DNA of 64,000 bases from Alphaproteobacteria bacterium (GTDB taxonomy: Bacteria > Pseudomonadota > Alphaproteobacteria > CAAHEQ01 > UBA3637): NCBI GenBank assembly GCA_015062245.1, contig SUVA01000003.1:21372-85371 (forward strand). The letters are read 5' to 3'. A model generated the notes under the pieces. It worked only from the letters and a program-made list of their open reading frames with translations. It had not been told where the DNA came from and made no database searches. A program made the position numbers and the translations under genes. Below are positions 13,522-43,868 of the stretch, one piece after another (the first letter of the stretch is position 1; every line of letters starts with the position of its first letter).

Positions 13522-14061
13522 CTAGATAATTTCCAATTTGATTTTATTATCTTCGTGCGTCCATTTTAGGGTGTGATTTTCTTGATTTAGCTGATGCATC
13601 AACCATTCTGCTTCTAATGTTTGAATGTCAGATGATGCCGGTGGATTATTTGATAAAATTTCAAGTATATTATTATTTAATATCAAATCGTTAGATAATA
13701 TAGTTAAAGTATTATCTGAATATAAAATTTCACCACCGGCCATGACAAATTGAAGTCCACAGGCGACCAAAGAAAGTTCTAATCGTGTATTAATTTCGCC
13801 TGAAAAAGAAATTTTTGGTCCCAATGTTTTTAAATAATCTAAAATCAGGCCCTTATCAATGGATTTTGTTTGTGTTCCGAACAATGCCCGATAATACTTT
13901 AATCTGGCCATCAGCATATCCGTATTTTGTTTTAACATTTGAGGGGCTTCATTGACAAAAGACGGATCTAAATTCATTAAATCAACCGTGCTGGATAGAG
14001 CTCCGATACCACCGGCTAAATCGTGTGAAAGTTTGACCGTTAAACACTCAGAAAAATTCAT
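13522..14061 (-). CDS. chpT: ChpT-like histidine phosphotransferase (CckA-ChpT-CtrA relay)
   Basis: N-terminal LTVKLSHDLAGGIGALSSTVDLMNLDP and later LMARLKYYRALFG parallel the ChpT/HPT motif (LCHDLISPxxAIxxGLELL ... FxRxAFG); start overlaps stop of upstream gene. Confidence 0.55.
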   Translation of the reverse strand: MNFSECLTVKLSHDLAGGIGALSSTVDLMNLDPSFVNEAPQMLKQNTDMLMARLKYYRALFGTQTKSIDKGLILDYLKTLGPKISFSGEINTRLELSLVACGLQFVMAGGEILYSDNTLTILSNDLILNNNILEILSNNPPASSDIQTLEAEWLMHQLNQENHTLKWTHEDNKIKLEII

Positions 14062-14951
14062 TGTTTTCCTTTCTTCTGTTTCATTGAATTGAAAATCTTT
14101 TGACCAATTTCATCAACATTTTCTATAAAATTGATATTGGCTTTTTCAAAGGCTAGTTTTTTTTGTTCAATGATATCCGAAAACAAAACGGATTCCATGC
14201 CAAGTAAAGGCCTTTTTGTGGAACGGTTTAAAAAACGCCCCGGTATGTAGGCAAATATCTTTTTATGTTTTTTTTGCGTTTTGATAAAATCGGCCAATTC
14301 TTGTTCCAATTGGCCATGTATTTGACCGATAATTAAAATAATTTCGGAAGTTTTATCCTTTAAAAGAGATTGAACAACGGGAACGAAAGTTGTCCCGATA
14401 AGATGATCTGTTCCCAAAGTAACACATTTTGAAACACCTAAACCCTGTTCATTTAATTGAGAAACAGCTTCATATATCAAAGAGGAGGAACGCCCGACAA
14501 TGGCAACTTTTCCGCTTTTAAATAAATGAGAGGGTAGAGTTCCGACTAAGGCTTGATCAACATTTAAAATACCGTTAGAGGATGGCCCCAAAAGTTGAAC
14601 CCCATTTTCTTTTGCAACCATTTTCATCTTTAATGCATCGTGCATGGGGACATGTTCAGTTGTGCAGATTATCAAAGGAATGCCGGCTTTCGCGGCCTGA
14701 ATAACGTCCTCTAATGCGTGGGCAGGGGTAGAAAAAATAACACTGATTTTAGGTGCGTATTTTTTTACAGCCTGTTTTACTTGATTAAAAACAGGAATTC
14801 CCATCAAATTGGTTAAATGACTTTCTTGACTGATACCTGCAACAACATTTGTTCCATATGCCAAAGCTTTTTCCAATTGATATAAGCCCATTTCACTGGT
14901 AACACCTTGAAAAATAACGGGGGTTTTTGAATTAGGAAAGCAAAACATCAA
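14058..14951 (-). CDS. Succinyl-CoA synthetase alpha (SucD)-like protein, apparently lacking the catalytic phosphohistidine
   Basis: Collinear with SucD (VIFQGVTSEMG, GISQ, IVGRSSSLIYEAV, LGTDH). At the position of the conserved KRMGHAGAII it reads KRPLLGMESVLF (no His). The CoA-contact Cys of GPNCPG is GPSSNG here. Confidence 0.6.
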   Translation of the reverse strand: MMFCFPNSKTPVIFQGVTSEMGLYQLEKALAYGTNVVAGISQESHLTNLMGIPVFNQVKQAVKKYAPKISVIFSTPAHALEDVIQAAKAGIPLIICTTEHVPMHDALKMKMVAKENGVQLLGPSSNGILNVDQALVGTLPSHLFKSGKVAIVGRSSSLIYEAVSQLNEQGLGVSKCVTLGTDHLIGTTFVPVVQSLLKDKTSEIILIIGQIHGQLEQELADFIKTQKKHKKIFAYIPGRFLNRSTKRPLLGMESVLFSDIIEQKKLAFEKANINFIENVDEIGQKIFNSMKQKKGKQ

Positions 14952-16087
14952 TATCCCTCCTTGGCTTGTTTAATAACCTCTTGAACGGCTAAATCTATTT
15001 GTGATGTATAATAAAAAGGAATAAGTGATTTTCGTAAAATGGCTTCGCCTTCCGTTGCATCCAAGCCCACCATTCGCACAACAATAGGAACGCCTATGGC
15101 GATTTCACCAGAGGCATCAACTAAGCCCTGTGCAATGTTTTTGCAACTGGTCAATCCGCCAAAGATGTTGACCAAAATGGCATCCACATCCGGTTCGGCC
15201 AAAGCCAATTTCAATGCGGTTGTGATGGATTTAATGGTTGGATTTGTTCCGACATCCAATAAACAAGCAACGGAAGCATTGTTTTTATGGATTAAATCAA
15301 CTGTGGCTAATCCCAGCCCGATTCCGTTACTTAAACAGGCAATGTTTCCGTTTAATTTCGTATATCTGAAAGCATTTTTCTTGGCTAATGCTTCCCGTTC
15401 ATGTCCTAATTTTGTTTCACGACATTGTTCCAATTCAGGAAAACGAAACAAAGAATCCGGATCAAAAACCAAACGACCGTTGACCACAATTAATTTTTCA
15501 TTTTTGCACACAACCGGACTTAATTCTATGGCCATAGCGTCATAAGATAAAAACAACTGAAATGCCTTATTTAAAATTGAAATAAATTGTTTTTTTATTC
15601 CGGCTTTTTTTAATTTTAATTTGTCACAGACTTTTTTGTAAAAATCGTTATTCAGTTTCAAATTTTCAATTTGCAAAGATAATATTTGAGAAGTATTTTG
15701 ACAGATGGAAAAAGTGATTCCTGGATTTTCAAAATCAACACGAAAAACCAAACGGCAAAAAGCATCCAATGTCGTGGCCTGTTCAATATAAAGGCGTTGT
15801 ATAGTGGAAGAAAAAACGGGGTTCGGTTCATGAAAAGATTCGCCTAAAATTAAAGTGGCGCTTTGTTCAACTTCCTGAGGTGTTGTGGCAAAAAATTTGT
15901 GTTGCAGTTCTTCATCAGTATAGGGTGGGGCAGAGGTCATCATTTGCGGTTTTAACCAAAAAGCATCGCCCCCCATTTGCTGGGCAACTTCTTTGGCCTC
16001 TTCTGGTGTATAGGTAATCTGACCGTCCAAAACAGGCAATCCTGCAGAACGAAAGATTTGCTTTACATAATATTCGTTTAATTCCAT
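14948..16087 (-). CDS. Succinyl-CoA synthetase beta (SucC)-like ATP-grasp protein with degenerate nucleotide-binding loop
   Basis: N-terminal MELNEYYVKQIF (cf. MNLHEYQAKQLF). C-terminal ligase-CoA motifs are conserved (NGNIACLSNGIGLGLATVDLI, ILVNIFGGLTSC). The GGRGKAGG ATP-binding loop is replaced by PQMMTSAPPY. Confidence 0.6.
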   Translation of the reverse strand: MELNEYYVKQIFRSAGLPVLDGQITYTPEEAKEVAQQMGGDAFWLKPQMMTSAPPYTDEELQHKFFATTPQEVEQSATLILGESFHEPNPVFSSTIQRLYIEQATTLDAFCRLVFRVDFENPGITFSICQNTSQILSLQIENLKLNNDFYKKVCDKLKLKKAGIKKQFISILNKAFQLFLSYDAMAIELSPVVCKNEKLIVVNGRLVFDPDSLFRFPELEQCRETKLGHEREALAKKNAFRYTKLNGNIACLSNGIGLGLATVDLIHKNNASVACLLDVGTNPTIKSITTALKLALAEPDVDAILVNIFGGLTSCKNIAQGLVDASGEIAIGVPIVVRMVGLDATEGEAILRKSLIPFYYTSQIDLAVQEVIKQAKEGY

Positions 16088-16137
16088 ATTCCCCTCTTTT
16101 TTACTTAATCATATAGAGATAAAAAGATATTGTCAAG

Positions 16138-17004
16138 TTATTTATCACTTAATGATTTTAATTTTTGCCAAAAAGTTTTTGGTGGATTTTTTTGAATCAA
16201 GGATGATAAAAATTCAGGCAAAGCCTTTTCCAATTCGTTCATTTCATAAAAGGTTTGAACTTTTCCGTCTTGGATTAAAGAAACATCACCCGTTTCTTCG
16301 GATACAACCAAACATAAAGCATCTGTTGTTTCGCTTAAACCGATGGCTGCACGATGACGTGTGCCGTATTTCCAACTGAGAGTTGCATCTTTTGAAAGCG
16401 GAAGAATGACGCCGGCCTTGGCAATACGATTTTGGGAACAGACAACCGCTCCGTCATGCAAAGGAGTATTGACAAAAAACAAATTTATCAAAAGCTCTGT
16501 TGAAATTTTGGCATCTAATGAGATTCCGCCTGTGCAAACGGTATTGACGGGTTCCATTCTTTCAAAAGCAATTAAAGCGCCCGTTCTGTATTTTCGCCAA
16601 TAGGCAATGGATTGTATTAAGATGTTGACTAAGCTGTCGGATAATTGTTTTCGTTTTGCTTTTGTGAAAAAGGTTACCTGATTGCCCAATAATGACATTA
16701 ATCGTCTGAGTTCGGGCTGGAAAATAATAACAGCCGATAAAATCAACAATAAAATAAAGTTTCGCAGAAGTCCGGCTAAAATTCTTAAATGAAAGAGCAT
16801 GAAAAATTCACTGATCAACCATGTAAAAACCAAAAAGAAGAGCATTCCTTTAACTGTTTTTTCGGCCGGTGAGTTTTTAACAAAGCTTTTATAACAAAAC
16901 CATAAAAAGAAGACAATAATAAATAATTGCAACAAAAAGCTGACCCATGAGAGCCCGGTGTTTCCCAATAATTCTTGCAACTCTGTTTTTAATGTGCCAA
17001 TCAT
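16138..17004 (-). CDS. cdaA: Membrane diadenylate cyclase (c-di-AMP synthase) CdaA
   Basis: Three N-terminal TM helices then IIFQPELRRLM (matches B. subtilis CdaA IIFQPELRRAL). DAC domain motifs PLHDGAVVC, RIAKAGVILPLS, YGTRHRAAIGLSETTDALCLVVSEETGDVSL. Confidence 0.8.
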   Translation of the reverse strand: MIGTLKTELQELLGNTGLSWVSFLLQLFIIVFFLWFCYKSFVKNSPAEKTVKGMLFFLVFTWLISEFFMLFHLRILAGLLRNFILLLILSAVIIFQPELRRLMSLLGNQVTFFTKAKRKQLSDSLVNILIQSIAYWRKYRTGALIAFERMEPVNTVCTGGISLDAKISTELLINLFFVNTPLHDGAVVCSQNRIAKAGVILPLSKDATLSWKYGTRHRAAIGLSETTDALCLVVSEETGDVSLIQDGKVQTFYEMNELEKALPEFLSSLIQKNPPKTFWQKLKSLSDK

Positions 17005-18728: not shown

Positions 18729-19919
18729 TTATGGATCCCGACAAATGGCGGAGTTGTTGAGGTAGCCACTGTAGCGAGAGTCGTCGAGGACAGCACCGCT
18801 GTTGTGGGAGACAAAACGCGTGCCACAGGAACCTGACTTGCTATTATCCGCTAGCCAAAGACTACCAGATTCTCCAAAGACATCTGTACTTCTAATCGCT
18901 ACATTTGTGGCCGAACAATCACTATCTGATCCGCCATTGCAAATACAAGGTTTCGTTGCGTAATTTGAGTGTGAACTGTTAAAATAACAGTGTGTATTCG
19001 TGCCACTGTCCGCCAGCCCTAAATCAGACATAGTCACAAGTTGTTTGCCATGCGCTTGACACAGGTTGGACGCACTCCACCAGTTCATTGTGCCTGAACT
19101 CTTATACACCGTTAAAGCACCACCGGGCAGGTTGAGGGTTTTGACCGTAAAATCATTTGTATCATCCAATTCTCCCTTATCCGTACACGTTCCCGTCCCC
19201 GGATTCGTACAACTACCATCACTGAACTTGCAGTATTTTGTCGTATCCACATTGCCTTCGGCATCCTTACAATCGCCGTTCTGGGTACACCCACTCGTTG
19301 GTTTGGCGCAGATGTATGTTGAGGTATTCGTCCCCTTTGCACAATACGTCCCTTCGGCGCAACATTCTGTCCCGCACATAAAGACACCGTTCGGACATTT
19401 GCATTCGCCGTGGAAACACTTTAGTCCGTCATCACATGTTACATTCTTACAGGCTGGGTCAAACTTTCCCCCTGTTGGGCTTTTTTCGCCTTCGGCCTCT
19501 GTGGTTGCCAAGTTTTTGTAATAAGTGATGGTAGCATTGCCTGATTCATCACAAACAACATCACGCACCATACCGCCTTTGGAATTTTTCATTTGTGTGC
19601 AAACATCTTTATCAATGCCCGATAGTGTTAAATTAAATTGAGTGCCGTTATCGGTAAGAGTGGTTGCATAGCCTGAGTTGGCAAAATCGGTGATTGTTGA
19701 TGGTAATTTCCCGTCATTGGTCATGGCATAAGCCGACACCGTTGTTGCCATCATGGATGCTTTATGCAAGGCCTCATTGGCTTTGTGTTTTTCCACCGCT
19801 TTGGAATAGGCCGATATGCCACCAACACTCAACACGCCCACAATGGCCAGCACGCCCAGCATTTCAACCATACTGCGCCCCTTTTGACTTCTTTTATCAT
19901 TTTTGTTTGTTTTATTCAT
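18729..19919 (-). CDS. Type IV pilin-like N-terminus fused to Cys-rich EGF-like repeats and a C-type-lectin-like C-terminal domain (396 aa); candidate adhesin
   Basis: Class-III signal-like N-terminus QKG|RSMVEMLGVLAIVGVLSVGGISAY with Glu at +5 and a hydrophobic helix; central CxxGxC repeats (CDDGLKCFHGECKCPNGVFMCGTECCAEGTYC); C-terminal WWSASNLCQAHGKQLVTMSDL resembles a CTLD start. Confidence 0.5.
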   Translation of the reverse strand: MNKTNKNDKRSQKGRSMVEMLGVLAIVGVLSVGGISAYSKAVEKHKANEALHKASMMATTVSAYAMTNDGKLPSTITDFANSGYATTLTDNGTQFNLTLSGIDKDVCTQMKNSKGGMVRDVVCDESGNATITYYKNLATTEAEGEKSPTGGKFDPACKNVTCDDGLKCFHGECKCPNGVFMCGTECCAEGTYCAKGTNTSTYICAKPTSGCTQNGDCKDAEGNVDTTKYCKFSDGSCTNPGTGTCTDKGELDDTNDFTVKTLNLPGGALTVYKSSGTMNWWSASNLCQAHGKQLVTMSDLGLADSGTNTHCYFNSSHSNYATKPCICNGGSDSDCSATNVAIRSTDVFGESGSLWLADNSKSGSCGTRFVSHNSGAVLDDSRYSGYLNNSAICRDP

Positions 19920-19939: not shown

Positions 19940-20140
19940 AAACAAAACACGCCTTGATGAGAGGCGGGTTGGAAGTTCGAAACTATAAACGCTATAGCAT
20001 TACATATTTGGGTTGGATAACCCTTATTTTGTAACCATCCAACCCTGACAGTTGGATTTTACGTCTTTCAGACGGCGTTTGAAGGATTTCGAAGCCTCCA
20101 CTGCGAGAATCACCCGACAGCAGTTCCAGTATAAAATGAT
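19940..20140. other. GC-enriched, hairpin-rich intergenic block; candidate structured ncRNA or long 5' leader (unclassified)
   Basis: Local GC clearly above flanking AT-rich DNA; nested inverted repeats (gggttggataaccc / ggttggat...atccaacc, cgtctgaaagacg); no ORF. Confidence 0.2.
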
Positions 20141-20170
20141 TAAATTTTTTTTGCAAGTAAAAAATATGCT

Positions 20171-20199
20171 TGACATTATAAAATCATTTGTGTAAAATA
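20171..20199 (+). promoter_or_regulatory. Near-consensus sigma70 promoter (TTGACA-17-TAAAAT) immediately upstream of the tRNA-His 5' remnant (probable native tRNA-His promoter)
   Basis: ttgacattataaaatcatttgtgtaaaat read directly; it drives only the truncated tRNA fragment at 20216. Confidence 0.4.
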
Positions 20200-20209
20200 T
20201 AAACTATTC

Positions 20210-20256
20210 ACCAGATGGCGGATGTAGCTCAGTTGGTTAGAGCGCTGGTTTGTGGT
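20210..20256 (+). repeat. Distal attachment-site repeat: 47-nt exact copy of the 5' half of tRNA-His (leader through anticodon loop)
   Basis: accagatggcggatgtagctcagttggttagagcgctggtttgtggt is identical to 27809-27855; the sequences diverge right after the anticodon GTG. Confidence 0.7.
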
Positions 20257-20619
20257 TCCGCTTTTCAACTTCCAAATTTTCTGATAAACACCGCATAAAA
20301 GACAAGAGCAGAATTCTTGTATTGAATTTGTTATAAGTCCTGTCATTATTGTTCTATCTTGAAATTTGAATGAATGGAAAGGTATCTTTTGGGCGCTTAA
20401 ATTTTGGAAATTCAGAACGCCTAAAAGCTCAAACCTCATTTTCTATCCCTAAACTCTCCCTAAACGATGGAATAATCACTTTTGTAAATGGGAAAAAGGA
20501 CTTTTTTCTTTGGCATTTACATTAGCCTCATTAGCCGCATTTGCCCCTTACATTAATATTATGCCCGAAATTTTTGAAAATGTCAAAAGAAATTAAGGGG
20601 TTATTTAAAAATAAACGCG

Positions 20620-21108
20620 TTATTTTTCACGAAATGATAGCATAAAATCCAAATTTCTTTTTGTAATCCAAAAAGAAAAAAGTAATCCTAAGAATGAAAT
20701 AAGTGCATAATAGGAAGAGATAACTAAACATACTTTCCATTCTGTTGTGGAAAACAAAAAGGCAAAAATTATTGATAGTAAGCAGGTCATAATTGTCCAT
20801 GATAGAAAATTGAGTAAATTTTTCAATGGTCGATATTGTTCTTTTTTCCAGCCATCTTTGTATTCTGATTTTAAGTAATTGGTGTAATCTTCTTTATCAT
20901 ATAATTTTTCTTTCATATGTGGTATTAGGAAACTTTGCATTGTAAATAAGATGGAGGCAATAGCAAAATATGCAGAAATCCAACTTCCTGTTCCATTAGG
21001 ATCTTTTGGAACTAATGGAATGAGGGTCAATACAAAAGATAATTCCTTTACTTTGAAAGAAATAACCAAAGGAATAATAAAAGTAAATATTGTAAAAAAT
21101 ACCTTCAT
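20620..21108 (-). CDS. Small integral membrane protein (162 aa, ~4 TM), island cargo
   Basis: Four hydrophobic segments (FFTIFTFIIPLVISF, ISAYFAIASILFTMQSFLI, LSWTIMTCLLSIIFAFLF, LVISSYYALISFLGLLFSFWI); 3 nt downstream of the 292-aa gene. Confidence 0.5.
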   Translation of the reverse strand: MKVFFTIFTFIIPLVISFKVKELSFVLTLIPLVPKDPNGTGSWISAYFAIASILFTMQSFLIPHMKEKLYDKEDYTNYLKSEYKDGWKKEQYRPLKNLLNFLSWTIMTCLLSIIFAFLFSTTEWKVCLVISSYYALISFLGLLFSFWITKRNLDFMLSFREK

Positions 21109-21111
21109 TTT

Positions 21112-21990
21112 CTAAATAATCCCTAAATCTCTACAGATAACATTTGATTTTACAAAATCTAACATATGAACAATAGTTGGATGGGTACTTAACTCTTCTG
21201 TATTAAATTTTTTTAATTCCCGTGTTACGTCATCGTAATCATAAGATGTTAATGGCCTAAAAATATTGTCTAAATTTATAACTTCCCTTTCTCCTTCTTC
21301 ATTTTTCCCAACCACTTTCAATTTTTTAGTACCTAATTCTTTTAAGTCAAGAATTTTAGGGATTATATCAGATAAAGGAGCCTTCCTTTTAAAAATTATT
21401 TGTTTTTGTTCGGATTTTACAAAATCAGGAGTAAAAATAGAACGTTTTGTAGATTGCTCTAAATACGATATTGAAGTGATTGAAAAAAACCTATTCAATG
21501 CCATAGAAGCTTCTTCAGCCTTTATTATTTGGATGCAAGAAATCTTATTTTTTCTCTTAAAGCTCAGTGACGAGCTGTCGTAGCCTTTTAGTGAAACAAA
21601 ATCATCAAAAAACTTTCTTAAAATTTTTTCTAACACAGATAATGAAGCAGAATTAGCATATGTCAACCATATCCCTGATGTAGTATTTTTATTCAAAATG
21701 AAAAAGTTGTATTCCGCACCATCTTTGATTTCGGCTATTTCTGTAGAATATCCCCCATTAGGATTTACTACTACTCTGCAATGTGCTGAGTAGTCTCGAG
21801 AAGAAAAAAGTAGTCCGGCGTAATAAGAGGAGGAAGCAACTGGTTGAATAAAAAGATTTCTCTTTTTTTTACAGATATCAATTGGTCCTTCTTTTTGAGA
21901 AGTTATATAATCAAAAAGATCTGAAATGGAAAAATCGATATCTTTTTGCTTTTTTAAAATAATTTTAAAGGGATATGCGTTTATATTCAT
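21112..21990 (-). CDS. Hypothetical cytoplasmic protein (292 aa), island cargo, no recognisable domain
   Basis: Long ORF co-directional with and between the XRE gene and the membrane-protein gene; composition typical of the element (very AT-rich, Lys/Ser/Phe-rich). Confidence 0.45.
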   Translation of the reverse strand: MNINAYPFKIILKKQKDIDFSISDLFDYITSQKEGPIDICKKKRNLFIQPVASSSYYAGLLFSSRDYSAHCRVVVNPNGGYSTEIAEIKDGAEYNFFILNKNTTSGIWLTYANSASLSVLEKILRKFFDDFVSLKGYDSSSLSFKRKNKISCIQIIKAEEASMALNRFFSITSISYLEQSTKRSIFTPDFVKSEQKQIIFKRKAPLSDIIPKILDLKELGTKKLKVVGKNEEGEREVINLDNIFRPLTSYDYDDVTRELKKFNTEELSTHPTIVHMLDFVKSNVICRDLGII

Positions 21991-22050
21991 CTAAGACTCC
22001 AAAAAAAACTGTACTATTTATAGCAGAATTTTAAGAAAAAATCAAATTGT

Positions 22051-22389
22051 TTATTTCATTTCCAAAAGGGCCTCAATCTGTTTAAGGGCGGTTTTGAGTG
22101 TCTTTTCATCCTGTCCTTCTAATAATCGGGTAATAGTCTTTAATGTGTCTGAATGTGGTTTGTTCTGTGTGGATATATCAGTCAATAAATCTTGAACGGG
22201 GACATTGAGTGCGTTAGCAAAGGAAAGAAGTGTTGTAATTTTGGGGTCACTGAGTCCACGTTCTACATTTGAAATGGTATTTATCATTTTACCGGATACT
22301 TCGGCAAATTCCTCTTGTGAAAGTCTTTTTTGTTTGCGTAAAACGGCAATACGTTTACCAAGCGTTTGTAAAAATACTTTATTTGTCAT
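22051..22389 (-). CDS. XRE-family HTH transcriptional regulator (Cro/cI-like)
   Basis: LRKQKRLSQEEFAEVSGKMINTISNVERGLSDPKITTLLSFANALNVPVQDLL = classic HTH_XRE; start placed at MTNKVFLQ (the upstream in-frame extension lacks an RBS). Confidence 0.7.
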   Translation of the reverse strand: MTNKVFLQTLGKRIAVLRKQKRLSQEEFAEVSGKMINTISNVERGLSDPKITTLLSFANALNVPVQDLLTDISTQNKPHSDTLKTITRLLEGQDEKTLKTALKQIEALLEMK

Positions 22390-22465
22390 AATACCTCTTT
22401 TGTTATGGTAGTATTTTCCTATTTTGCTGTGTAAAAGACCATAACGGTAAAATGTGTATTTTGGC

Positions 22466-22494
22466 TTGACATTTCTAAAAATACATATTATACT
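22466..22494 (+). promoter_or_regulatory. Sigma70 promoter (TTGACA-17-TATACT) for the PD-(D/E)xK-like gene
   Basis: cttgacatttctaaaaatacatattatact read directly. Confidence 0.45.
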
Positions 22495-22519
22495 GTGTTT
22501 ATTGATTACAATAAACACA
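22494..22519. promoter_or_regulatory. Perfect 11-4-11 palindromic operator (TGTGTTTATTG-atta-CAATAAACACA) between -10 and RBS
   Basis: Exact inverted repeat read directly; positioned to block transcription; the divergent XRE repressor is the obvious candidate binder. Confidence 0.45.
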
Positions 22520-22531
22520 TGGGAGTATGAA

Positions 22532-23467
22532 ATGAACGGTCCAAACATCTTCGATTATGCTACCAGTGAGCTCTCTCAAGATGCTTTTTTGTGTTATCTG
22601 TTAGCCTTTGGAAAAGAAAAATATAAAATGGATTTTCCGAAAGAGTATATGCTTGCTCATAAGTTTCTTGCAAAATGTGGTATTGATGAAAAAGAGGAAA
22701 TATTGTCCGTTGGACAACAGGTGGAACATATTGATGTTTTAATTATTACAACTTCCCACATTCTTATTATTGAAGATAAAACTTATACTGATGAACATGA
22801 TGATCAAATAATTCGTTATGTGAAAAATATGAGGAAATCTGAAGAAAAATTTTTAAATGATAAAAAAATTAAGGTATGTTTTTTAAAAACAGGCGATTAT
22901 GTTAAATCCTATTCTTCAAGTGATGAAAGTGTTTTACAAAATAAAGATTGTTGTTCTTTAAGACGTAAAAATTTATTGGAATTACTAAAGGATTATTATA
23001 AGTGTAATTTAGTATTTGAAATGTTTTATAAACGACTTCTTTCCGTTGAAGAAGCTATAGAACAATGTGATAGTGAAAATATATTTGATTGGAATCGCTA
23101 TAAATGGTTCGATTTCCTTTATAATACTTTAATTGAGAAAAAGAAAGTTTTTGACATAAAATGGGTTCATAATCCTAATGGCGGTTTTTATGGTTGTTGG
23201 TTTGGTTCTCATAAACTAGGAGAAATTGAGAAGTATAAACAAATTGAAATTCATTTCAATGAAAAGGGAACAGAATTTGTAGATTTGTGCTTAAAATGTT
23301 CATCTGAAAGTAAAGAGAAAACTCAGAAATATAAATCAGATATGGAAAAGTGGCAAAAGGAATCTGGTTTTAATCGTCCTGATCGTTGGCGTATTGGTCG
23401 GACAACAACCTATGCCACAAAACAAGCAATCAATGTTCGGGATATTCAAAACTTTATCAAAAAATAA
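22532..23467 (+). CDS. PD-(D/E)xK nuclease-like protein (312 aa), island cargo
   Basis: E...D...E-x-K arrangement (SELSQDAF ... HIDVLIITTSHILIIEDKTY) with the hydrophobic-strand context typical of restriction-endonuclease-fold nucleases; GGGAG RBS 6 nt before the ATG. Confidence 0.4.
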   Translation: MNGPNIFDYATSELSQDAFLCYLLAFGKEKYKMDFPKEYMLAHKFLAKCGIDEKEEILSVGQQVEHIDVLIITTSHILIIEDKTYTDEHDDQIIRYVKNMRKSEEKFLNDKKIKVCFLKTGDYVKSYSSSDESVLQNKDCCSLRRKNLLELLKDYYKCNLVFEMFYKRLLSVEEAIEQCDSENIFDWNRYKWFDFLYNTLIEKKKVFDIKWVHNPNGGFYGCWFGSHKLGEIEKYKQIEIHFNEKGTEFVDLCLKCSSESKEKTQKYKSDMEKWQKESGFNRPDRWRIGRTTTYATKQAINVRDIQNFIKK

Positions 23468-23496
23468 CAACTGAAAGGAAAGGAAGATGGCAAAAG

Positions 23497-23616
23497 TATA
23501 TGTAACACAGTATGATTATCAAGCAGATTTAAAAGTTTATAAAGTACAAAATGACTATCAGGCAAAATGGCAAACAAGCAATCCTTTTATTAGTCGATTA
23601 GGATAATATAACTCAT
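23497..23616 (+). CDS. Small ORF (39 aa, MAKVYVTQYDYQADLKVYKVQNDYQAKWQTSNPFISRLG) with strong RBS
   Basis: aggaaaggaag RBS then ATG; below the ORF-track cutoff; followed by a terminator. Confidence 0.25.
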
Positions 23617-23652
23617 AATAAGGCATGTCTTTGACTTTGAAAAAAATTTTAA

Positions 23653-23688
23653 AGGATAGGGCGGAAAAACTCCGCCCTTTTTCTTTCT
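23653..23688. terminator. Bidirectional terminator (gggcggaaaaactccgccc flanked by T-runs) between convergent island genes
   Basis: Read directly. Confidence 0.45.
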
Positions 23689-25925
23689 TACACGGAATCA
23701 AAAACTTCTGGATTTACTATATAAAGTGTTTTTTGACGACCCCTTGATTCCCCTGGTCGAGATATTTTTTTAGTTTTTAACCATCCATATTTTATCAAAA
23801 TAGAGGTTGCTTTTTCCGCTTGTTCCTTTCGCCGAATTCCAGGAACAACTGCGTTGTAATAGATATCCCTTAAGGTAAAGCTCTCAATTTTGTTGTTTAA
23901 GATATATTGAGCTAATTTTCTGGCTTCTTGCTGATATTCTGGCGCCATATAAATTCCATAAACACGTTTTGCCATAGGAAATAAGTACTGTTCATAAAAA
24001 TTTATAGCAGTATTAAGAGCATTTAACCCAATGAAATCAGGCTCTGGATTTTCGCTATCTGCCCACCATAAATATTCAAACATCAAACTTAAACGAACAA
24101 CAACACCCTGTCCTTTATTCAAGAAAAAACCCAATTTTTCATCTTCCCGTTCAATCGCTTGTGCAAAATGGACGTGTTTTAAGTACCACTGATTAAACAT
24201 TTCCTGAGCCTCATCAGAAAATTTTAATTGCTTTTTGGGATTCTCAGCATTATCCCCATAAGGATTGACTAAATTGAATAATTTTTTAAGTGCACGGAAC
24301 ACTTTTTCGTTATTCGGAGCTACTTTGGGGATAGCAGGGGCTACAACCTCTGGATAAGCCCAAAGAAAACGAGGGACAAGCCCGTCTTCGGCGTTACCCA
24401 AAAAGGCGTCTATGACCCTTTTAGGCTGGATAGTGCCAAAAATTGAAATAAGCAAATGTGGTACTTCAATTCTATCTTCCCCAAATTTTACACGATCGGA
24501 AGAATAATATTTACCATTATAGGTTTCAAGCCAAAAACTTTTTTCAGCGTTGCCACTGGTGTATCGATTCATTCCTGCTAACCATCCATACAGCTCGTCT
24601 CGAAAAACGATTGCCCCAGTTGTATTGTTTTGTAAGTTTTGAAGAAGTGCTTCCTGCGTTGTATCACAAAAACAAAAACGATATGATTGTGGTTTTGGAG
24701 GCTTATTCAAATTATCGGGAATCGTTTGTTTTTTATCTGGATTTTTTTTGATATCCTTATACCAGTTCTTTAACTTTTTTTCATAAGCTATATTTTCACC
24801 TTTCCAAACGTTATAAGCCCTCTCAAACTCTGGCTTACGTGATTTTTCCAAATCACATAAAATGCTTTTTATAGGACTGATAGTCGGCGTTTTTCTTGAG
24901 CTCGGATCTCCAACAATTCCCATAAAAAAACAGGGGTATTCTACAAAACCAGGCCATGGGGAAAGGCTGCGGGCTAATCCCATACAGGCACCCGTTGCTG
25001 CTATTAAAGAAAATCCAACATAGTCAACTGCTGCATTACAACTGGCAGCTGTTTCCACTACCCATTCTTCCATAGTTTGAAAACAATCGGTTTTCATCCT
25101 TGGAGCAGGTTCAATAATTTTTTCCTTTAAAATGGATAAATCAAGTTCTTGGAAATCTGGATTATCCAAGGTTTCAGAAAAAGAGATTGAATTTTCTAAT
25201 GTTCTTTCTACTTCTTCAATTTCAAGTCCACTTTGTAAAGCTGACTTAATAATTTTGTTATATATATTTGCCATATTTAAACTCCTTTCTTTGGCAAGTT
25301 GTTGGATGCGAATTGATTTTCGCAAAAGTGTATCATTGCGTTTACCCTCTGGGGCATTTGAAATGTCTTCCAAAAGTGCTGATATATCGTTAATTCTGGC
25401 GTTTTTGCCTGTTATAATTTCTAGCAACCATTCAGGCGCTTCTGGAAAAGTTAAATCATTAGGATTTACATTTTCCCAATGATATTGGTTACCGTTTTCA
25501 TGAACGGAAAAGGGGGCAACAATATATCCCCCGTCTGCACGTATATCAATATGCGGGGCAATTTTACTGGCGCTTGACCTAATAGTTATATTTTCGGGGT
25601 ATTTAAAATAAAGGTGTTTTCCTCGCCCTGTTAAAACGGCTGGGGCATTTAATTTACCATACTCTTTTTCCAAAAGTTGAAGTGATTCAAATCCTTCTTG
25701 TTCGTCAATATCAACTACGAAAATACCATTTTCTTCCCCAGTTGGGAGACCAATATTACAAGGGGAAAATTTTTCACTCCATTCCGTTATTTGTTTTAAG
25801 TCTGTTGTGGCTCCCTTAAAACCTGTTTTAATAAGGGGAGCCTTTCCACGATATTTCACGGGGAAGACTTTCATATTTAACCGAACATATTGTTTGGCGA
25901 TGTTATAAAAGTTGTTTTCAATCAT
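23688..25925 (-). CDS. Bifunctional DNA primase/polymerase (AEP Prim-Pol N-terminal domain) with C-terminal P4-alpha-like/DUF3987-type region; element replication protein
   Basis: VVDIDEQEGFESLQLLEKEYGKLNAPAVLTGRGKHLYFKYPENITIRSSASKIAPHIDIRADGGYIVAPFSVHENGNQYHWEN matches the Prim-Pol signature (lDiD...tpsGGrHlyf...G.DvRgdGGYvvaPpSvh.sG..Y.w); 745 aa. Confidence 0.75.
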   Translation of the reverse strand: MIENNFYNIAKQYVRLNMKVFPVKYRGKAPLIKTGFKGATTDLKQITEWSEKFSPCNIGLPTGEENGIFVVDIDEQEGFESLQLLEKEYGKLNAPAVLTGRGKHLYFKYPENITIRSSASKIAPHIDIRADGGYIVAPFSVHENGNQYHWENVNPNDLTFPEAPEWLLEIITGKNARINDISALLEDISNAPEGKRNDTLLRKSIRIQQLAKERSLNMANIYNKIIKSALQSGLEIEEVERTLENSISFSETLDNPDFQELDLSILKEKIIEPAPRMKTDCFQTMEEWVVETAASCNAAVDYVGFSLIAATGACMGLARSLSPWPGFVEYPCFFMGIVGDPSSRKTPTISPIKSILCDLEKSRKPEFERAYNVWKGENIAYEKKLKNWYKDIKKNPDKKQTIPDNLNKPPKPQSYRFCFCDTTQEALLQNLQNNTTGAIVFRDELYGWLAGMNRYTSGNAEKSFWLETYNGKYYSSDRVKFGEDRIEVPHLLISIFGTIQPKRVIDAFLGNAEDGLVPRFLWAYPEVVAPAIPKVAPNNEKVFRALKKLFNLVNPYGDNAENPKKQLKFSDEAQEMFNQWYLKHVHFAQAIEREDEKLGFFLNKGQGVVVRLSLMFEYLWWADSENPEPDFIGLNALNTAINFYEQYLFPMAKRVYGIYMAPEYQQEARKLAQYILNNKIESFTLRDIYYNAVVPGIRRKEQAEKATSILIKYGWLKTKKISRPGESRGRQKTLYIVNPEVFDSV

Positions 25926-25951
25926 TTTTTATCCTTTCATTTAGATTGAAT

Positions 25952-26365
25952 TTATTCTTCACAATTAAAAAGTCTATCCAAATAGCTACAAGCTGCTTCA
26001 ATGGTGTAATATACTTTTTTGTTTACACACACGTATTGGGAATGATCATCTCTTGTAATAACTCCTTCCAGCATAGAATCTTTATTTCGTAAAGTATTGC
26101 AATTTAGAAATCCGCAAACTTCACAGAATTTTGTTCTTGCGATTGTTTCACCATATGTCTTGATTTTTGCCTTTAATTTGTATAACAAATTTGGGCTGAT
26201 ATAATTTTTGATCATTTTAAAGACCTTTGTTTTTAGGTTATGGGGATCCCAGATTAAAACCACTGTTTTTCTGTTCCCACCTAAAAACGCAGCAAATCTT
26301 ATTTTCACCTTTTTATTTTTATTTATTTTATAAGTTTTTGATTTTAAATAATTATATCTAATCAT
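25952..26365 (-). CDS. Hypothetical Cys-containing protein (137 aa) between integrase and primase
   Basis: ORF only; CEVCGFLNC ... CVNKK ... C pattern suggests a zinc ribbon; start overlaps integrase stop. Confidence 0.35.
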   Translation of the reverse strand: MIRYNYLKSKTYKINKNKKVKIRFAAFLGGNRKTVVLIWDPHNLKTKVFKMIKNYISPNLLYKLKAKIKTYGETIARTKFCEVCGFLNCNTLRNKDSMLEGVITRDDHSQYVCVNKKVYYTIEAACSYLDRLFNCEE

Positions 26366-27542
26366 TTTCTGACTCCGAATTGAGCGTGCGAACAGCTTTA
26401 CGCAAAGAATTATTGGATAAATGTGAATATCTGAGGGTCATGGAAATATCAGAATGCCCTAAAAGTTCTTTAACCACAAAAATAGAATTTCCTTTTTCCA
26501 CAAGGCGACTTGCATACGTATGTCTTAATGTGTGAAAGACAACCTTTTGCCGTCTATCAGTGATTCCCTGATTGAGGCCCAATTTTTTCACGGCTCTTTC
26601 ATAAGTTCTTGATACATGTTCAATTTTTTTACCATTTCGGCTTGGAAAAAGGTGTTGATTTGTTTCTTTGTTTGGAAGTTTTGAAACTTCTTCAAAAACA
26701 CGATCTGTCATAAAGGCAAAACGGTTTTTCTTGTTTTTTGTATCTTTTAGAGTGAATTCTTTTTGATTCAAATTGACATCCGCCCAAGTCAGATTAAAAA
26801 TTTCTCCTGCTCGTAATCCACAGTCTGCCGAAATTAGAGCCATTAAATATACTTCATAGCTTCTCTTTTTAAGTTCTGTAAATAGAGCTTCCAATTCTTC
26901 AGCTGTTAAATAGCGTATGCGCCGATTGTCTTCTTTTTTACATTTTATTTTTGACGCAGGATTTTCCAAGCCAAAGTATAAATTTTCTTTTTTTGCAAAA
27001 TTGAACACTTGGCGCATAAGGGCAATCGCATAATTTTGACTTCGGACAGATAGTTGTTGATCTGCCATTATATTTTGCACCCTAATGAGGCTATTGCGGC
27101 TTATTTTTTCTAAGGGTAAAGAGCCAAAATAAGGTTCAAGCCATTTTTTAAATAAAACAAGCTCTCTATCATTTGTACTCTTTTTATGATATATTTGGCA
27201 ATAAGGCATATAACAAAGAGAAAAGATTTCCCTAAAAGTTTTGCTTTGAATACAATTCCTCTTATTACGTTCAAGAAGTTCATTGTTTTTCTTTTGTTGT
27301 TGTTGGGCTATTTCTTTTAAAGAGAATGCTGTACCAGCTTTTATACGTTGTTTTAAATCCCCTAATATATGATAAGCCTTTTCAGCTGTCCAACCCAGCG
27401 ATTTAAAACCAATCGGTTCTTCGTATTGTTTACCATTAACAGTATAGCGGATTGAAAAATAAATATCTTTCTTTCCTTGAGAGACACATTCTCTTTTTCT
27501 TACCCCTGGAAAATTTTTTGTCATTTTTACACTTCCTTTCAT
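26358..27542 (-). CDS. int: Tyrosine-type site-specific integrase
   Basis: Catalytic region HTLRHTYASRLVEKGNSIFVVKELLGHSDISMTLRYSHL (R...HxxR...Y); N-terminal SAM-like/arm-binding region; lies 270 nt from tRNA-His, reading away from it. Confidence 0.85.
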   Translation of the reverse strand: MKGSVKMTKNFPGVRKRECVSQGKKDIYFSIRYTVNGKQYEEPIGFKSLGWTAEKAYHILGDLKQRIKAGTAFSLKEIAQQQQKKNNELLERNKRNCIQSKTFREIFSLCYMPYCQIYHKKSTNDRELVLFKKWLEPYFGSLPLEKISRNSLIRVQNIMADQQLSVRSQNYAIALMRQVFNFAKKENLYFGLENPASKIKCKKEDNRRIRYLTAEELEALFTELKKRSYEVYLMALISADCGLRAGEIFNLTWADVNLNQKEFTLKDTKNKKNRFAFMTDRVFEEVSKLPNKETNQHLFPSRNGKKIEHVSRTYERAVKKLGLNQGITDRRQKVVFHTLRHTYASRLVEKGNSIFVVKELLGHSDISMTLRYSHLSNNSLRKAVRTLNSESEND

Positions 27543-27769
27543 GTGTTTTTTTGTTTGACAAAATTATCCCATATTTAAGAGAGAAAAACACGTCACTCAA
27601 TGCGTCACTCAGCGTTTTTCGTAAGTAATACATAACAAGTTTGATAAATATTTTAGGACAGCTTAATTTTTTAATCCCTAAATACCCCCTAAATTTTTGA
27701 GAATACATTTTAAAAATCTTCAAAAATAAAGGAAAATAGGTTTGAGAGGATAAAAATAGATTTTTTACT

Positions 27770-27798
27770 TGACTTTTGGTAAAAAATCTGCGAAAATA
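27770..27798 (+). promoter_or_regulatory. Weaker promoter-like sequence (TTGACT-17-GAAAAT) driving the intact tRNA-His; sits inside the element side of the repeat
   Basis: acttgacttttggtaaaaaatctgcgaaaat read directly. Confidence 0.3.
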
Positions 27799-27815
27799 AG
27801 GCTTATCAACCAGAT

Positions 27816-27893
27816 GGCGGATGTAGCTCAGTTGGTTAGAGCGCTGGTTTGTGGTACCAGATGTCGTCGGTTCGAGTCCGATCTTCCGCCCCA
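27816..27893 (+). tRNA. tRNA-His (anticodon GTG) with G-1 and encoded CCA
   Basis: Cloverleaf folded by eye: G-1, acceptor GCGGATG/CTTCCGC, D-arm GTAGCTCAGTTGGTTAGAGC, anticodon loop TTGTGGT, T-arm GTCGG-TTCGAGT-CCGAT, discriminator C, CCA. Confidence 0.85.
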
Positions 27894-27912
27894 TTTTTTT
27901 CAAGGAGTCTTT

Positions 27913-43178: not shown

Positions 43179-43868
43179 ATGATGCACATTTTAGTTATAG
43201 AAGATGACAAAATCACCAATCAAAACATCTGTCTTTTATTAAAAAAAGAAAAGATGATACCTGAATCTGCTTTTTGTGCCCATGACGGGTTAGAGTTGAT
43301 AAAGTTATATGATTACGATTTAATCTTACTTGACTTAATGTTACCGGATAGACCTGGTCTGGAAGTTTTGAAACAAATTCGCTTGCTGGGAATTAAAACA
43401 CCCGTTTTGGTGATATCCGGTTTACATCAAACGGAAAAGAAAGTGGATTGTTTAAATGCGGGGGCTGATGACTACCTGACTAAACCTTATGAACGAAGTG
43501 AGCTTTTAGCCCGTGTCAAGGCTTTAATTCGTCGCAGTTCAGGTTTGGCTGAATCAGTTATCAGAATCGGTAAAATGTCCATAGATATCAACAAAAAAAA
43601 TGTTTCTATTGATAATAAGACAATTCCCCTCACCCCGAAAGAGTATGCTTTAATAGAATTACTCGCTCTTAAAAAAGGGGTAACTGTCAGTAAAGAAACT
43701 TTCCTTAATCAGCTTTATGGTATTATGGATGAACCGCCTGACAGCAAAATCATAGATGTCTTTTTATGTAAAATGCGCCGCAAAATTAAAAAGGTTACAA
43801 ATGGCGAAGATTATATTCAAAATGTTTGGGGACACGGTTATATTTTAAAATCACCGGATAAAAAATAA
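43179..43868 (+). CDS. ctrA: OmpR-family response regulator, CtrA-like cell-cycle regulator
   Basis: MHILVIEDD ... DLILLDLMLPD ... receiver motifs; C-terminal winged helix; synteny with ihfA/MerR and presence of ChpT. Confidence 0.7.
   Translation: MMHILVIEDDKITNQNICLLLKKEKMIPESAFCAHDGLELIKLYDYDLILLDLMLPDRPGLEVLKQIRLLGIKTPVLVISGLHQTEKKVDCLNAGADDYLTKPYERSELLARVKALIRRSSGLAESVIRIGKMSIDINKKNVSIDNKTIPLTPKEYALIELLALKKGVTVSKETFLNQLYGIMDEPPDSKIIDVFLCKMRRKIKKVTNGEDYIQNVWGHGYILKSPDKK

Follow-up and report, generated by a model that had tools for sequence, protein, structure and literature searches.

We asked what has become of the two adjacent genes at this locus, which resemble those for the beta (SucC) and alpha (SucD) subunits of succinyl-CoA synthetase (SCS) and which both depart from them at catalytic positions. 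In the window (the whole 64-kb stretch of DNA that was analysed), the minus-strand ORFs 14948-16087 and 14058-14948 encode full-length homologues of SucC and SucD, here called beta-like and alpha-like. They overlap, are intact and are followed by chpT, the last gene of a three-gene operon.

16108 to 16136, minus strand: sigma-70-like promoter (TTGACA, 17-nt spacer, TATGAT; 11 of 12 matches), putative, from a consensus scan only
14948 to 16087, minus strand: SucC-like (beta-like) subunit, probably a pseudo-subunit; 379 aa, ATG start; MBE6446081.1, E7021_01560, annotated as 'hypothetical protein'
14058 to 14948, minus strand: SucD-like (alpha-like) subunit, probably a pseudo-subunit; 296 aa from the NCBI-annotated ATG; MBE6446080.1, E7021_01555
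13522 to 14061, minus strand: chpT; 179 aa, start overlapping the alpha-like stop (ATGA); MBE6446079.1, E7021_01550

A SucCD-like gene pair outside a TCA context

A spacer of 50 bp separates cdaA from the beta-like gene and holds the putative promoter, and a GAGGGG Shine-Dalgarno sequence precedes the beta-like ATG at 16087. The pair would be transcribed from this promoter of its own and be translationally coupled with chpT. The preliminary description had called both ORFs intact and translationally coupled, and this was borne out: the beta-like stop TGA and the alpha-like ATG have one base in common (TGATG), AGGAGG lies 7 nt 5' of the alpha-like ATG, and neither ORF contains a frameshift or internal stop. 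An alternative alpha-like start, TTG at 14951, would give a protein of 297 aa (ORF 14058-14951).

The pair matches SucCD (EC 6.2.1.5; E. coli, PDB 2SCU/1CQI) in its beta-then-alpha order with overlapping genes, its full-length collinearity and its four domains. Pfam ATP-grasp_2 and Ligase_CoA in the beta-like protein, and CoA_binding (59.7 bits, cut-off 22.3) and Succ_CoA_lig in the alpha-like protein, all score above their gathering thresholds. The subunit-specific models match end to end at scores far from membership: the beta-like protein reaches 225.7 bits with the SucC model NF001913 (cut-off 370) and 220.2 with TIGR01016 (375.6), and the alpha-like protein 222.8 bits with the SucD model TIGR01019 (353) and 219.6 with NF004230 (336). 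The predicted beta-like structure (pLDDT 88) superimposes over its full length on SCS beta chains with TM scores of 0.71-0.81, and these chains rank ahead of citryl-CoA synthetase and ACLY. In SCS, the beta C-terminal domain forms the alpha/beta interface; it is the most conserved part of the beta-like protein and shares its motifs with SucC, and the two proteins probably form an alpha/beta heterodimer. The window pair is co-operonic with chpT, and mdh, sucAB and other TCA genes are not adjacent to it. No canonical sucCD was found within the 64-kb window; an ORF pair of 379 and 291 aa at 50-52 kb, a candidate on account of its size, encodes a D-Ala-D-Ala carboxypeptidase and a lytic transglycosylase.

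Loss of catalytic residues under purifying selection

The nucleotide site in the SCS ATP-grasp domain consists of Lys46, the G52-G-R-G-K56 loop, Glu99/Glu107 and the Mg ligands Asn199 and Asp213, and the active-site His246-alpha of SucD lies in the motif MGHAGA on a swinging loop. These positions were located by HMMER alignment to the E. coli SCS chains and by MAFFT alignment with 57-68 canonical sequences. Compared with SucCD, the pair is without His246-alpha, Glu208-alpha, Asn122/Cys123-alpha, the beta GGRGK loop, Glu107-beta and Asn199-beta, and in the window protein Asp213-beta is gone as well. The altered sites are as follows.

15917 to 15952, minus strand: beta-like residues 46-57, KPQMMTSAPPYT, replacing the E. 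coli SucC nucleotide-phosphate loop K-C-Q-V-H-A-G-G-R-G-K-A
14571 to 14588, minus strand: alpha-like GPSSNG (canonical GPNCPG), with Asn122 and Cys123 both Ser
14322 to 14324, minus strand: codon of alpha-like Gln209, where SucD has the catalytic Glu208-alpha (GEIGG to GQIHG)
14181 to 14216, minus strand: alpha-like residues 245-256, KRPLLGMESVLF, occupying the phosphohistidine loop KRMGHAGAIIAG, with Leu for His246

In the beta-like protein, K46 and Q48 are retained and the remainder of the loop is gone, H50-A-G-G-R-G-K-A-G-G being replaced by MMTSAPPYT. Glu107 is Phe, the Mg ligands Asn199 and Asp213 are Ser and Asn, and about 10 residues of the ATP-grasp domain around E. coli 133-144 are deleted. 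There is no His in the alpha-like NRSTKRPLLGMESVLFSD, where the His246 column holds Leu (in KRPLLGM), and Gly154-Thr155 has become Ser-Ser. It had been proposed that the SucC nucleotide-binding loop is replaced, that the phosphohistidine site is without its His and that the Cys of GPNCPG is Ser; the alignments agree on each point, finding no GGRGK equivalent, Leu at His246, and Ser at the Cys with neighbouring Asn122 also Ser. With no phosphorylatable His, with the Glu/Mg arrangements broken and with no nucleotide-phosphate loop, the pair would be unable to run the SCS reaction. As read from these residues, SCS chemistry itself has been lost, and the two proteins are probably pseudo-enzymes.

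All family members examined show the same catalytic losses, which are thus not due to chance. The GGRGK loop is absent in 120/120 listed beta-like relatives; His246 is absent in 114/114 full-length alpha-like relatives and Glu208 in 107 of the 114, and in two loci (L014, L017) the phosphohistidine loop is deleted outright. Of the two catalytic glutamates of SCS, Glu208-alpha (site I) and Glu197-beta (site II), one is thus missing. Among the ATP-grasp residues, K46, Glu197-beta (118/119 members) and, in most members, D213 survive; the nucleotide loop differs between members, as does Asn199, and more distant beta-like subfamilies retain an R-G-K-like loop. With these survivors and distant loops, some nucleotide binding by the beta-like family may persist. 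Of the residues that we take to contact CoA in E. coli (G14-x-T16-G17, Pro40, Lys42, Val72-Pro73, Ile95-Thr96-Glu97, Asn122-Cys123), the alpha-like protein keeps G14, T16 and T96, with K42 present in 75% of members, and positions G17, P40, V72, P73, I95, G98, N122 and C123 are changed; CoA binding by the pair is therefore not assured.

Each subunit has more than 100 full-length homologues at 36-98% identity with family-specific invariant motifs, and an intact adjacent pair is present in relatives down to 36% identity. The beta-like and alpha-like genes are adjacent in 16/16 loci and overlap in most. All members come from MAGs of uncultured Alphaproteobacteria, mostly from gut (animal, human) or rumen. 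A genome-collection scan with the beta-like alignment gave at least 13 family loci, one of its two patterns also matching canonical SucC, and a metagenome scan with the alpha-like alignment gave one family locus among the matches listed, which were mostly canonical SucD. In a representative library clustered at 50%, the alpha-like family amounts to ~3 representatives, besides a few unrelated His-less singletons. The alpha-like family is cleanly set apart from canonical SucD, scores dropping from 221 bits to 179 between the two. As to a descent of the family from the alphaproteobacterial SucCD, the scores against PDB and canonical sequences, a set with no alphaproteobacterial canonical members, do not discriminate (the four best bacterial entries lie at 143-148 bits, all entries at 116-148).

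Degeneration is domain-specific, and constraint has shifted between domains. The degenerate parts are the ATP-grasp loops and the phosphohistidine loop: by pairwise identity, the latter is the worst conserved segment of the family (25%) and the best of canonical SucD (84%), and the beta ATP-grasp domain stands at 38% versus 56%. In contrast, the beta C-terminal domain (62% versus 68%) and the alpha N-terminal domain (59% versus 64%) are kept. Conserved motifs include GNIAC-x-VNG-x-GL, NIFGG, C325 and VVR in the beta-like protein and R152-S153, Y158-E159 and Q13-G14-x-T16 in the alpha-like protein, and the family has fixed substitutions of its own (beta G291T, A293P, K215R, D234E and E238G; alpha H142F, V107M, G154S and T155S). 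Against a 93%-identical orthologue, dN/dS was 0.048 for beta and 0.074 for alpha, similar to the functional neighbour cdaA (0.060), with 0.032 for the N-terminal part of chpT. This is the purifying selection that the preliminary description had suggested looking for, and its view of a conserved scaffold or pseudo-enzyme, not a decaying gene, is upheld by the dN/dS, the intact pair and the retained fold.

The third gene encodes ChpT and is linked to the pair

ChpT is the central component of the CckA-ChpT-CtrA/CpdR relay, which drives the cell cycle in Alphaproteobacteria. The third gene encodes a ChpT histidine phosphotransferase. Its profile matches Brucella ChpT 4qpj (E=1.8e-9), and its model (pLDDT 95) gives TM scores of 0.76-0.82 to 4qpj, 4qpk, 4fmt and 4fpp, versus ~0.4 to ordinary histidine kinases; the seven best PDB matches are all ChpT chains. 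The model carries the His on a DHp-like helical hairpin, joined by a degenerate CA-like alpha/beta domain, and this residue, His13 in an SHDLAG motif, is invariant in 106 sequences. With the curated models, the window ChpT scores 26.7 bits with NF046025 (cut-off 225) and has no Pfam match, and PF10090 is matched by 66/106 of its relatives (E<=0.01). The third gene shares the fold, the H-box His and a genome with CtrA with the known ChpT proteins (Caulobacter CC_3470, PDB 4FMT/4FPP; Brucella, 4QPJ/4QPK), but is shorter (176-180 aa versus about 205-250) and about 18% identical to them. CtrA, the response regulator normally phosphorylated by ChpT and so its expected partner downstream, is encoded in the window apart from the operon.

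43179 to 43868, plus strand: CtrA orthologue (NF045991, 289 bits; next-best family 177), not contiguous with the operon

Across the family, chpT lies directly 3' of the alpha-like gene in 14/19 loci, mostly with a stop/start overlap, and three ChpT genes on contigs outside the beta-like list were all (3/3) preceded by the pair. The flanking genes reshuffle from locus to locus and the trio of beta-like, alpha-like and chpT stays together. CtrA is found 3.4 kb downstream in L014 and L017. Two loci without an adjacent chpT, L007 and L010, have a single-domain receiver gene directly upstream of the pair; neither receiver is assigned to CpdR or DivK, the NCBIfam scores being far below cut-off. In L008, L009 and L016, the DNA analysed contains no two-component gene. 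For one distant ChpT (P0258), the contigs end 75 nt upstream of the gene. The chpT operon, the confinement of the family to uncultured Alphaproteobacteria and the domain-specific degeneration are observations beyond those of the preliminary description. A literature search found no description of ChpT tied to or co-transcribed with a SucCD-like pair, and nothing relevant on succinyl-CoA synthetase pseudoenzymes or the RF32 TCA cycle.

Candidate roles of the pair

The operon with ChpT suggests that a metabolic enzyme has been reused as a signalling component. Our preferred reading, which we put forward tentatively, is that the pair is a non-catalytic SucCD-derived heterodimer that works together with the ChpT-CtrA phosphorelay and may sense a metabolite; the one line of evidence that points to a functional tie with ChpT is gene linkage. 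The SCS alpha/beta interface and the pocket for CoA, dicarboxylate and phosphate (site I) are built from three elements that the family conserves: the C-terminal domain of beta, the Rossmann domain at the N-terminus of alpha and the anion-binding N-termini of both 'power helices'. The pair would be a non-catalytic partner of the CckA-ChpT-CtrA/CpdR phosphorelay, most likely a module that binds CoA, acyl-CoA or dicarboxylate and adjusts phosphotransfer by ChpT to the metabolic state. This proposal presumes that the heterodimer forms, that it binds a ligand and that it interacts physically or functionally with ChpT, and any direction in which it would regulate is presumed as well. The SCS pocket between the power helices cradles the enzyme's own phosphohistidine, and in a bolder version, which we regard as quite unlikely, dead SucCD would be a metabolic gate on the cell-cycle phosphorelay: having lost that loop, the pocket would dock the phospho-His of ChpT or the phospho-Asp of a receiver such as CpdR or CtrA, and whether the adjoining CoA/dicarboxylate site is occupied would set the flow of phosphate to CtrA.

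Inactive modules of the Pat/PatZ type are the favoured functional analogy. NDP-forming acyl-CoA-synthetase domains without the His serve as sensors of acetyl-CoA, and the Pat/PatZ-type module is regulatory, acetyl-CoA-binding and oligomerising (PMC8556138). Pat/PatZ and the pair belong to the same superfamily and have both lost the catalytic His while retaining the fold. However, Pat is a single polypeptide fused to a GNAT catalytic domain, whereas here two stand-alone subunits have a phosphorelay partner, and in sequence the pair resembles SucCD and not the ACD/Pat branch. The beta-like and alpha-like proteins contain no GNAT domain, and in three loci (the window, L001 and L004) none adjoins the pair; in L002, an acetyltransferase gene lies ~4 kb upstream, with two genes including dnaE between. 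A conceptual precedent is CitA of Caulobacter crescentus, an alphaproteobacterial TCA protein that acts upstream of CtrA in a non-enzymatic way: this citrate synthase governs the G1-S transition, which depends on CtrA, and does so independently of catalysis (PMC7083601). CitA differs in being a still-active moonlighting enzyme of unrelated fold with no chpT linkage, whereas the pair has probably abandoned catalysis.

Other explanations keep the pair conserved for different reasons. It could be a neofunctionalised enzyme that works at the old site I, by acyl-CoA hydrolysis, CoA transfer or another CoA-thioester or dicarboxylate reaction, using neither phosphohistidine nor ATP. The elements that form site I are the best conserved parts, the family-fixed substitutions resemble a re-tuned pocket and not drift, and dN/dS is as low as in real enzymes. 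Yet no candidate nucleophile or base has been gained at a conserved position, Cys123-alpha, the neighbour of the CoA thiol, is gone, the loop covering site I is hypervariable or deleted, and the operon partner is a signalling and not a metabolic protein; we also know of no member of the NDP-forming superfamily that works without the His. We consider this explanation unlikely, if worth keeping in view. A small chance likewise attaches to a conserved non-catalytic role unrelated to ChpT (structural, chaperone-like or with another partner), in which chpT adjacency is inherited synteny. The pair is without nearby chpT in 5/19 loci and its neighbours are otherwise housekeeping genes of the ordinary kind (cdaA, gap, dnaE, ileS, rho), but the trio persists amid reshuffled flanks with stop and start codons usually overlapping, and at two of these five loci the pair has instead acquired a receiver-domain gene immediately upstream, which is hard to square with neutral synteny.

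The coupling of a His-phosphocarrier protein to a His-less SucD, together with the retained anion-binding helix N-termini, could be taken to indicate a three-piece succinyl-CoA synthetase in which ChpT His13 supplies the phosphohistidine in trans. This is very improbable: the ATP-grasp site is without its phosphate loop, Glu107 and, in the window protein, both Mg ligands, Glu208-alpha is gone, the ChpT His sits on a helical bundle and not on a swinging loop, and some lineages have the pair without adjacent chpT. Decay, finally, would make the genes remnants of a TCA-cycle operon leaving a reduced genome. Many catalytic residues are gone at once, and rumen Alphaproteobacteria MAGs of the orders Rs-D84 and RF32, which may not be those of the host, are reported to have reduced metabolic repertoires (PMC8992543). 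The ORFs are nevertheless intact, and the dN/dS of 0.05-0.07 and the large full-length family with its invariant motifs refute the decay explanation, leaving it practically no chance.

Pseudoenzymes that co-retain both subunits of a heteromeric central-metabolism enzyme after catalysis is lost are, to our knowledge, rare, and the dead SucCD pair is a clean test case for enzymes becoming regulators. We know of no metabolic input acting on ChpT; if the link to ChpT is functional, the pair would offer a molecular handle on how metabolism feeds cell-cycle signalling. Should the metabolic gate prove true, a TCA enzyme that was obsolete in an anaerobic gut lineage would have become a phospho-protein-binding sensor. 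JGI and some NCBI records name the family proteins succinyl-CoA synthetase subunits, and metabolic reconstructions that follow this annotation would wrongly assign a step of the TCA cycle or of substrate-level phosphorylation to these gut Alphaproteobacteria.

Catalytic-site losses in the SucC-like and SucD-like proteins

The window encodes a SucC-like (beta-like) and a SucD-like (alpha-like) protein in an operon with a third gene that we assign to chpT. The three genes are consecutive, and their stop and start codons overlap at both junctions:

14948..16087, minus strand: beta-like ORF, 379 aa (MBE6446081.1, E7021_01560)
14058..14948, minus strand: alpha-like ORF, 296 aa from ATG, or 297 aa from TTG at 14951 (MBE6446080.1, E7021_01555)
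13522..14061, minus strand: chpT ORF, 179 aa (MBE6446079.1, E7021_01550)
16136..16108, minus strand: near-consensus sigma-70-type promoter (TTGACA, 17 nt, TATGAT) in the 50-bp spacer between cdaA and the beta-like gene

The beta-like stop and alpha-like start form TGATG, with AGGAGG 7 nt 5' of that ATG, and the alpha-like stop and chpT start form ATGA. All three exact proteins are labelled 'hypothetical protein' in the databases, from a source MAG named 'Alphaproteobacteria bacterium'.

Both subunits pass the Pfam thresholds for the SucC/SucD domain sets (ATP-grasp_2 and Ligase_CoA in the beta-like protein, CoA_binding and Succ_CoA_lig in the alpha-like protein). The NCBIfam models aligned end to end at ~60% of their trusted scores (225.7 vs 370 for SucC, 222.8 vs 353 for SucD), and the collinearity with SucD noted for the alpha-like protein in the preliminary description holds over its full length. 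Residues were then compared with the E. coli succinyl-CoA synthetase (SCS) chains, whose numbering is used here, and with 68 canonical SucC and 57 canonical SucD proteins from the fetched loci plus E. coli. The E. coli SucC/SucD references are consistent with PDB alignments at overlaps and with the canonical consensus elsewhere; residue roles in SCS follow what is described for the enzymes of E. coli and pig.

In the alpha-like protein, both alignments placed Leu at the phosphohistidine His246 (KRMGHAGA to KRPLLGME), with zero His across the whole loop. Glu208 is replaced by Gln (GEIGG to GQIHG), Asn122-Cys123 and Gly154-Thr155 are each replaced by Ser-Ser, and Gly17, Pro40, Val72-Pro73, Ile95 and Gly98 are also altered. 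In the beta-like protein, both alignments showed the phosphate-binding loop H50-A-G-G-R-G-K-A-G-G replaced by MMTSAPPYT. Glu107, Tyr109 and Arg116 are missing, ~10 residues near E. coli 133-144 are deleted, and Ser and Asn replace the Mg ligands Asn199 and Asp213, respectively, while Lys46, Gln48, Glu197 and Pro200 are kept. The losses of the GGRGK nucleotide loop, of the phosphohistidine and of the GPNCPG Cys had previously been read by eye; each reading proved correct, Asn122 being Ser as well, and the formal alignment added further losses. These comparisons show that the SCS reaction as known would be impossible for the window pair, because the phosphoryl carrier, the glutamate of the CoA/dicarboxylate/phosphate pocket (site I) and an intact nucleotide/Mg site are all absent. 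The pair also falls outside the functional SucCD family, since it lacks four defining features: the active-site His, the full pair of catalytic glutamates (Glu208 is lost, Glu197 kept), an intact ATP-grasp nucleotide site and scores above the SucC/SucD model cut-offs.

Conservation and constraint in the family

When the beta-like protein was searched against 5.8 billion proteins (E<=1e-10), 224 relatives were returned. Identities among the 120 listed run from 93% down to 36%, and almost every one is about 379-390 aa long. The GGRGK loop is absent from each of them, and LDVGGGA is replaced throughout by LDVGT-x-P. The alpha-like search returned 268 relatives. Of the full-length ones, 117 were examined, and 114 of these group in one block at >=221 bits, with Leu (102), Ile (5), Phe (3), Val (3) or Met (1) but never His in the His246 column, and with Glu208 lost in 107. 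The other three scored 179 bits and are ordinary SucD with RMGHAGAI, GPNCPG and GEIGG; the family thus stands sharply apart from the enzyme. Outside it, the SucD-like proteins P0298, P0315, P0361 and P0383 are also His-less, and several His-less SucD-like representatives have Tyr at the His position (NMGYASDI, DIGYASDI). A further relative, P0263, has the His and GEIGG together with the family motifs GPSA and SRSASL, and may therefore be an intermediate or sister form.

Between the window and a 93%-identical orthologue (contig L086), dN/dS was 0.048 for the full beta-like gene (0.060 for its ATP-grasp part, 0.032 for its C-terminal domain), 0.074 for the full alpha-like gene and 0.032 for the first 78 codons of chpT. 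Because dS was high (about 0.9-1.2), these ratios are approximate, yet they are far from neutrality. Both subunits are therefore under purifying selection, near the value for the neighbouring control gene cdaA (0.060). Together with the >100 relatives that carry the same losses, this agrees with the earlier proposal that the pair is conserved rather than decaying, and we are highly confident that SCS activity was lost while selection was maintained.

Mean pairwise identity inside the family and inside the canonical set was compared as a measure of where constraint now lies. Conservation of the phosphohistidine loop is higher than that of any other stretch in real SucD and lower than that of any other in the family (84% canonical, 25% family), and the loop is wholly deleted (15 residues) in two loci, L014 and L017. 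The window's wider clade has a new conserved hydrophobic loop motif, K-x-P-L-L-G-M-x-x-V-x-F. Identity in the beta ATP-grasp domain is 38% in the family against 56% in the canonical set, compared with 62% and 68% in the beta C-terminal domain and 59% and 64% in the alpha N-terminal domain. Distant beta-like subfamilies have a nucleotide loop resembling the original (e.g. IHDGNRGKGFF in P0093), so that, judging from the alignments, the nucleotide site seems to have degenerated stepwise, whereas the His is gone from all members.

The C-terminal CoA-ligase motifs, described earlier as retained in the beta-like protein, are indeed nearly complete: GNIAC-x-VNG-x-GL, T272, D274, LD-x-G, NIFGG, C325, VVR, G351, G357 and S364 are kept, as are R152-S153, L156, Y158-E159 and Q163 in the alpha-like protein. 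In SCS, these residues make up the alpha/beta interface together with the N-termini of the two helices gripping the site-I phosphate. The confident AlphaFold2 model of the beta-like protein (pLDDT 88) superposed from end to end on beta chains of SCS (TM 0.71-0.81) and more poorly on citryl-CoA synthetase and ATP-citrate lyase. We infer that the two proteins still form an alpha/beta complex.

Linkage to chpT and genomic surroundings

The 179-aa product of the third gene alone gave zero Pfam matches and a weak NCBIfam ChpT match. A profile of 11 orthologues matched ChpT from Brucella (4qpj, E=1.8e-9) and from Caulobacter (E about 0.01), PF10090 was matched by 66 of 106 relatives, and His13 of the SHDLAG motif is invariant among them. 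The best seven PDB matches to its model (pLDDT 95) were all ChpT chains (TM 0.76-0.82, E about 1e-11 to 1e-12), followed by ordinary histidine kinases at TM about 0.4. On this profile and model evidence, the third gene is chpT.

We examined linkage in 19 loci in all. The beta-like and alpha-like genes are adjacent in 16/16 loci where both are readable, and chpT lies directly 3' of the pair in 14/19 loci with a readable downstream side (the window, L001, L002, L004, L006, L011-L015, L017 and L092-L094), with overlapping codons in most. The outer flanks of these loci vary: upstream lie the genes cdaA and gap (window, L001, L006), dnaE (L002), a prophage (L004) or rho (several others), and ileS lies downstream in five. 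In the reverse direction, three ChpT-like proteins were chosen from contigs absent from the beta-like list, and a His-less pair was directly 5' in 3/3. Five loci have no downstream chpT; in two of them the gene immediately 5' of the beta-like gene encodes a single-domain receiver (L007:5618-5983; L010:3755-4345, overlapping in L010), and neither receiver was assignable to CpdR or DivK. In L014 and L017, ileS comes after the cassette of pair and chpT, with CtrA (328 bits) next in line. A two-component gene was not found in the fetched DNA of L008, L009 and L016. The association of the pair with phosphorelay components is therefore strong, though not universal. In one subfamily of the cassette (L004 and L093), phosphotransferase genes of the APH type (aminoglycoside/choline-kinase-like) lie 3' of chpT in tandem runs of three to five.

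Further features of the window are:

465..5405, plus strand: ankyrin-repeat protein, 1646 aa
9768..13277, plus strand: pyruvate:ferredoxin oxidoreductase, 1169 aa, convergent with the operon
16138..17004, minus strand: CdaA-type diadenylate cyclase (TIGR00159, 199 bits, above cut-off), directly upstream of the operon
18729..19919, minus strand: Cys-rich protein, 396 aa, type-IV-pilin-like N-terminus MVEMLGVLAIVGVLSVGG
~20000..27900: low-GC (31%) integrated element adjoining tRNA-His (27817..27893)
23688..25925: Prim-Pol/DUF3987 primase of the element
26358..27542: integrase of the element
43179..43868, plus strand: CtrA orthologue (NF045991, 289 bits vs 177 for the next-best family)

CtrA is the usual phosphoacceptor of ChpT; its gene here neighbours a MerR-family gene, an IHF/HU-like gene and plsX. 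A second-messenger enzyme, CdaA, thus adjoins the phosphorelay operon, and cdaA also precedes the cassette in both L001 and L006; as far as is known, enzymes that make c-di-AMP are uncommon among Alphaproteobacteria. The low-GC element also carries an HTH regulator and a PDDEXK-like protein. No NCBIfam match was found for the Cys-rich protein, and L001 has an EGF_Teneurin-like gene at a similar position. Large ankyrin-repeat proteins are typical of host-associated bacteria, and one likewise flanks the cassette in L094.

Named family members all come from MAGs called 'Alphaproteobacteria bacterium', except one 'Pseudomonadota bacterium', and a cultured organism was not found among them. Recorded sources are animal or human gut (sheep rectum, roe-deer cecum), and isolate labels suggest samples from rabbit, a human cohort, Brazil and Nepal. 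Reduced metabolic repertoires have been described for rumen Alphaproteobacteria MAGs of the orders Rs-D84 and RF32 (PMC8992543), which are not necessarily the orders of the window MAG. Canonical sucCD was not found within the 64-kb window. The pyruvate:ferredoxin oxidoreductase gene beside the operon is consistent with an anaerobic lifestyle. This acetyl-CoA producer lies next to a dead CoA-ligase pair, a placement that is relevant to the idea of an acyl-CoA sensor and that may be coincidence.

Candidate mechanism and precedents

Purifying selection, the SCS fold and a shared operon with ChpT all persist despite the catalytic losses. The pair may have joined the CckA-ChpT-CtrA/CpdR relay as a non-catalytic partner, in which case it would be a metabolite-binding regulatory module acting on ChpT. 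Two precedents favour this reading: the Pat-type module, which is inactive for want of the catalytic His and works as an allosteric sensor that binds acetyl-CoA (PMC8556138), and Caulobacter citrate synthase, a TCA protein that affects the CtrA pathway without catalysis (PMC7083601). We tentatively regard such a module as the most likely mechanism, and consider the chances of a functional tie between the pair and the phosphorelay to be evenly balanced.

The retained C-terminal invariants would also suit a re-tooled enzyme with His-independent chemistry, which we think unlikely. A conserved protein without catalysis whose role has no tie to ChpT would accord with the five loci that have no chpT after the pair, and seems similarly unlikely. 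A three-piece SCS relying on the His of ChpT could draw on the invariant His13, but would still face the missing glutamate and nucleotide site, and is very improbable. Decay, at which the catalytic losses alone might hint, is practically negligible in view of the selection on both subunits.

The proposed working mode of the regulatory module resembles that of the Pat-type inactive sensor modules. The pair is not a member of that group, as it differs in being made of stand-alone subunits, in an operon without GNAT and in having SucCD rather than ACD ancestry. Full-text literature searches found no paper linking ChpT with succinyl-CoA synthetase and no description of a succinyl-CoA-synthetase pseudoenzyme. 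We rate the reuse of a dead enzyme module for regulation as known in kind, and the architecture and the partner proposed here as new.
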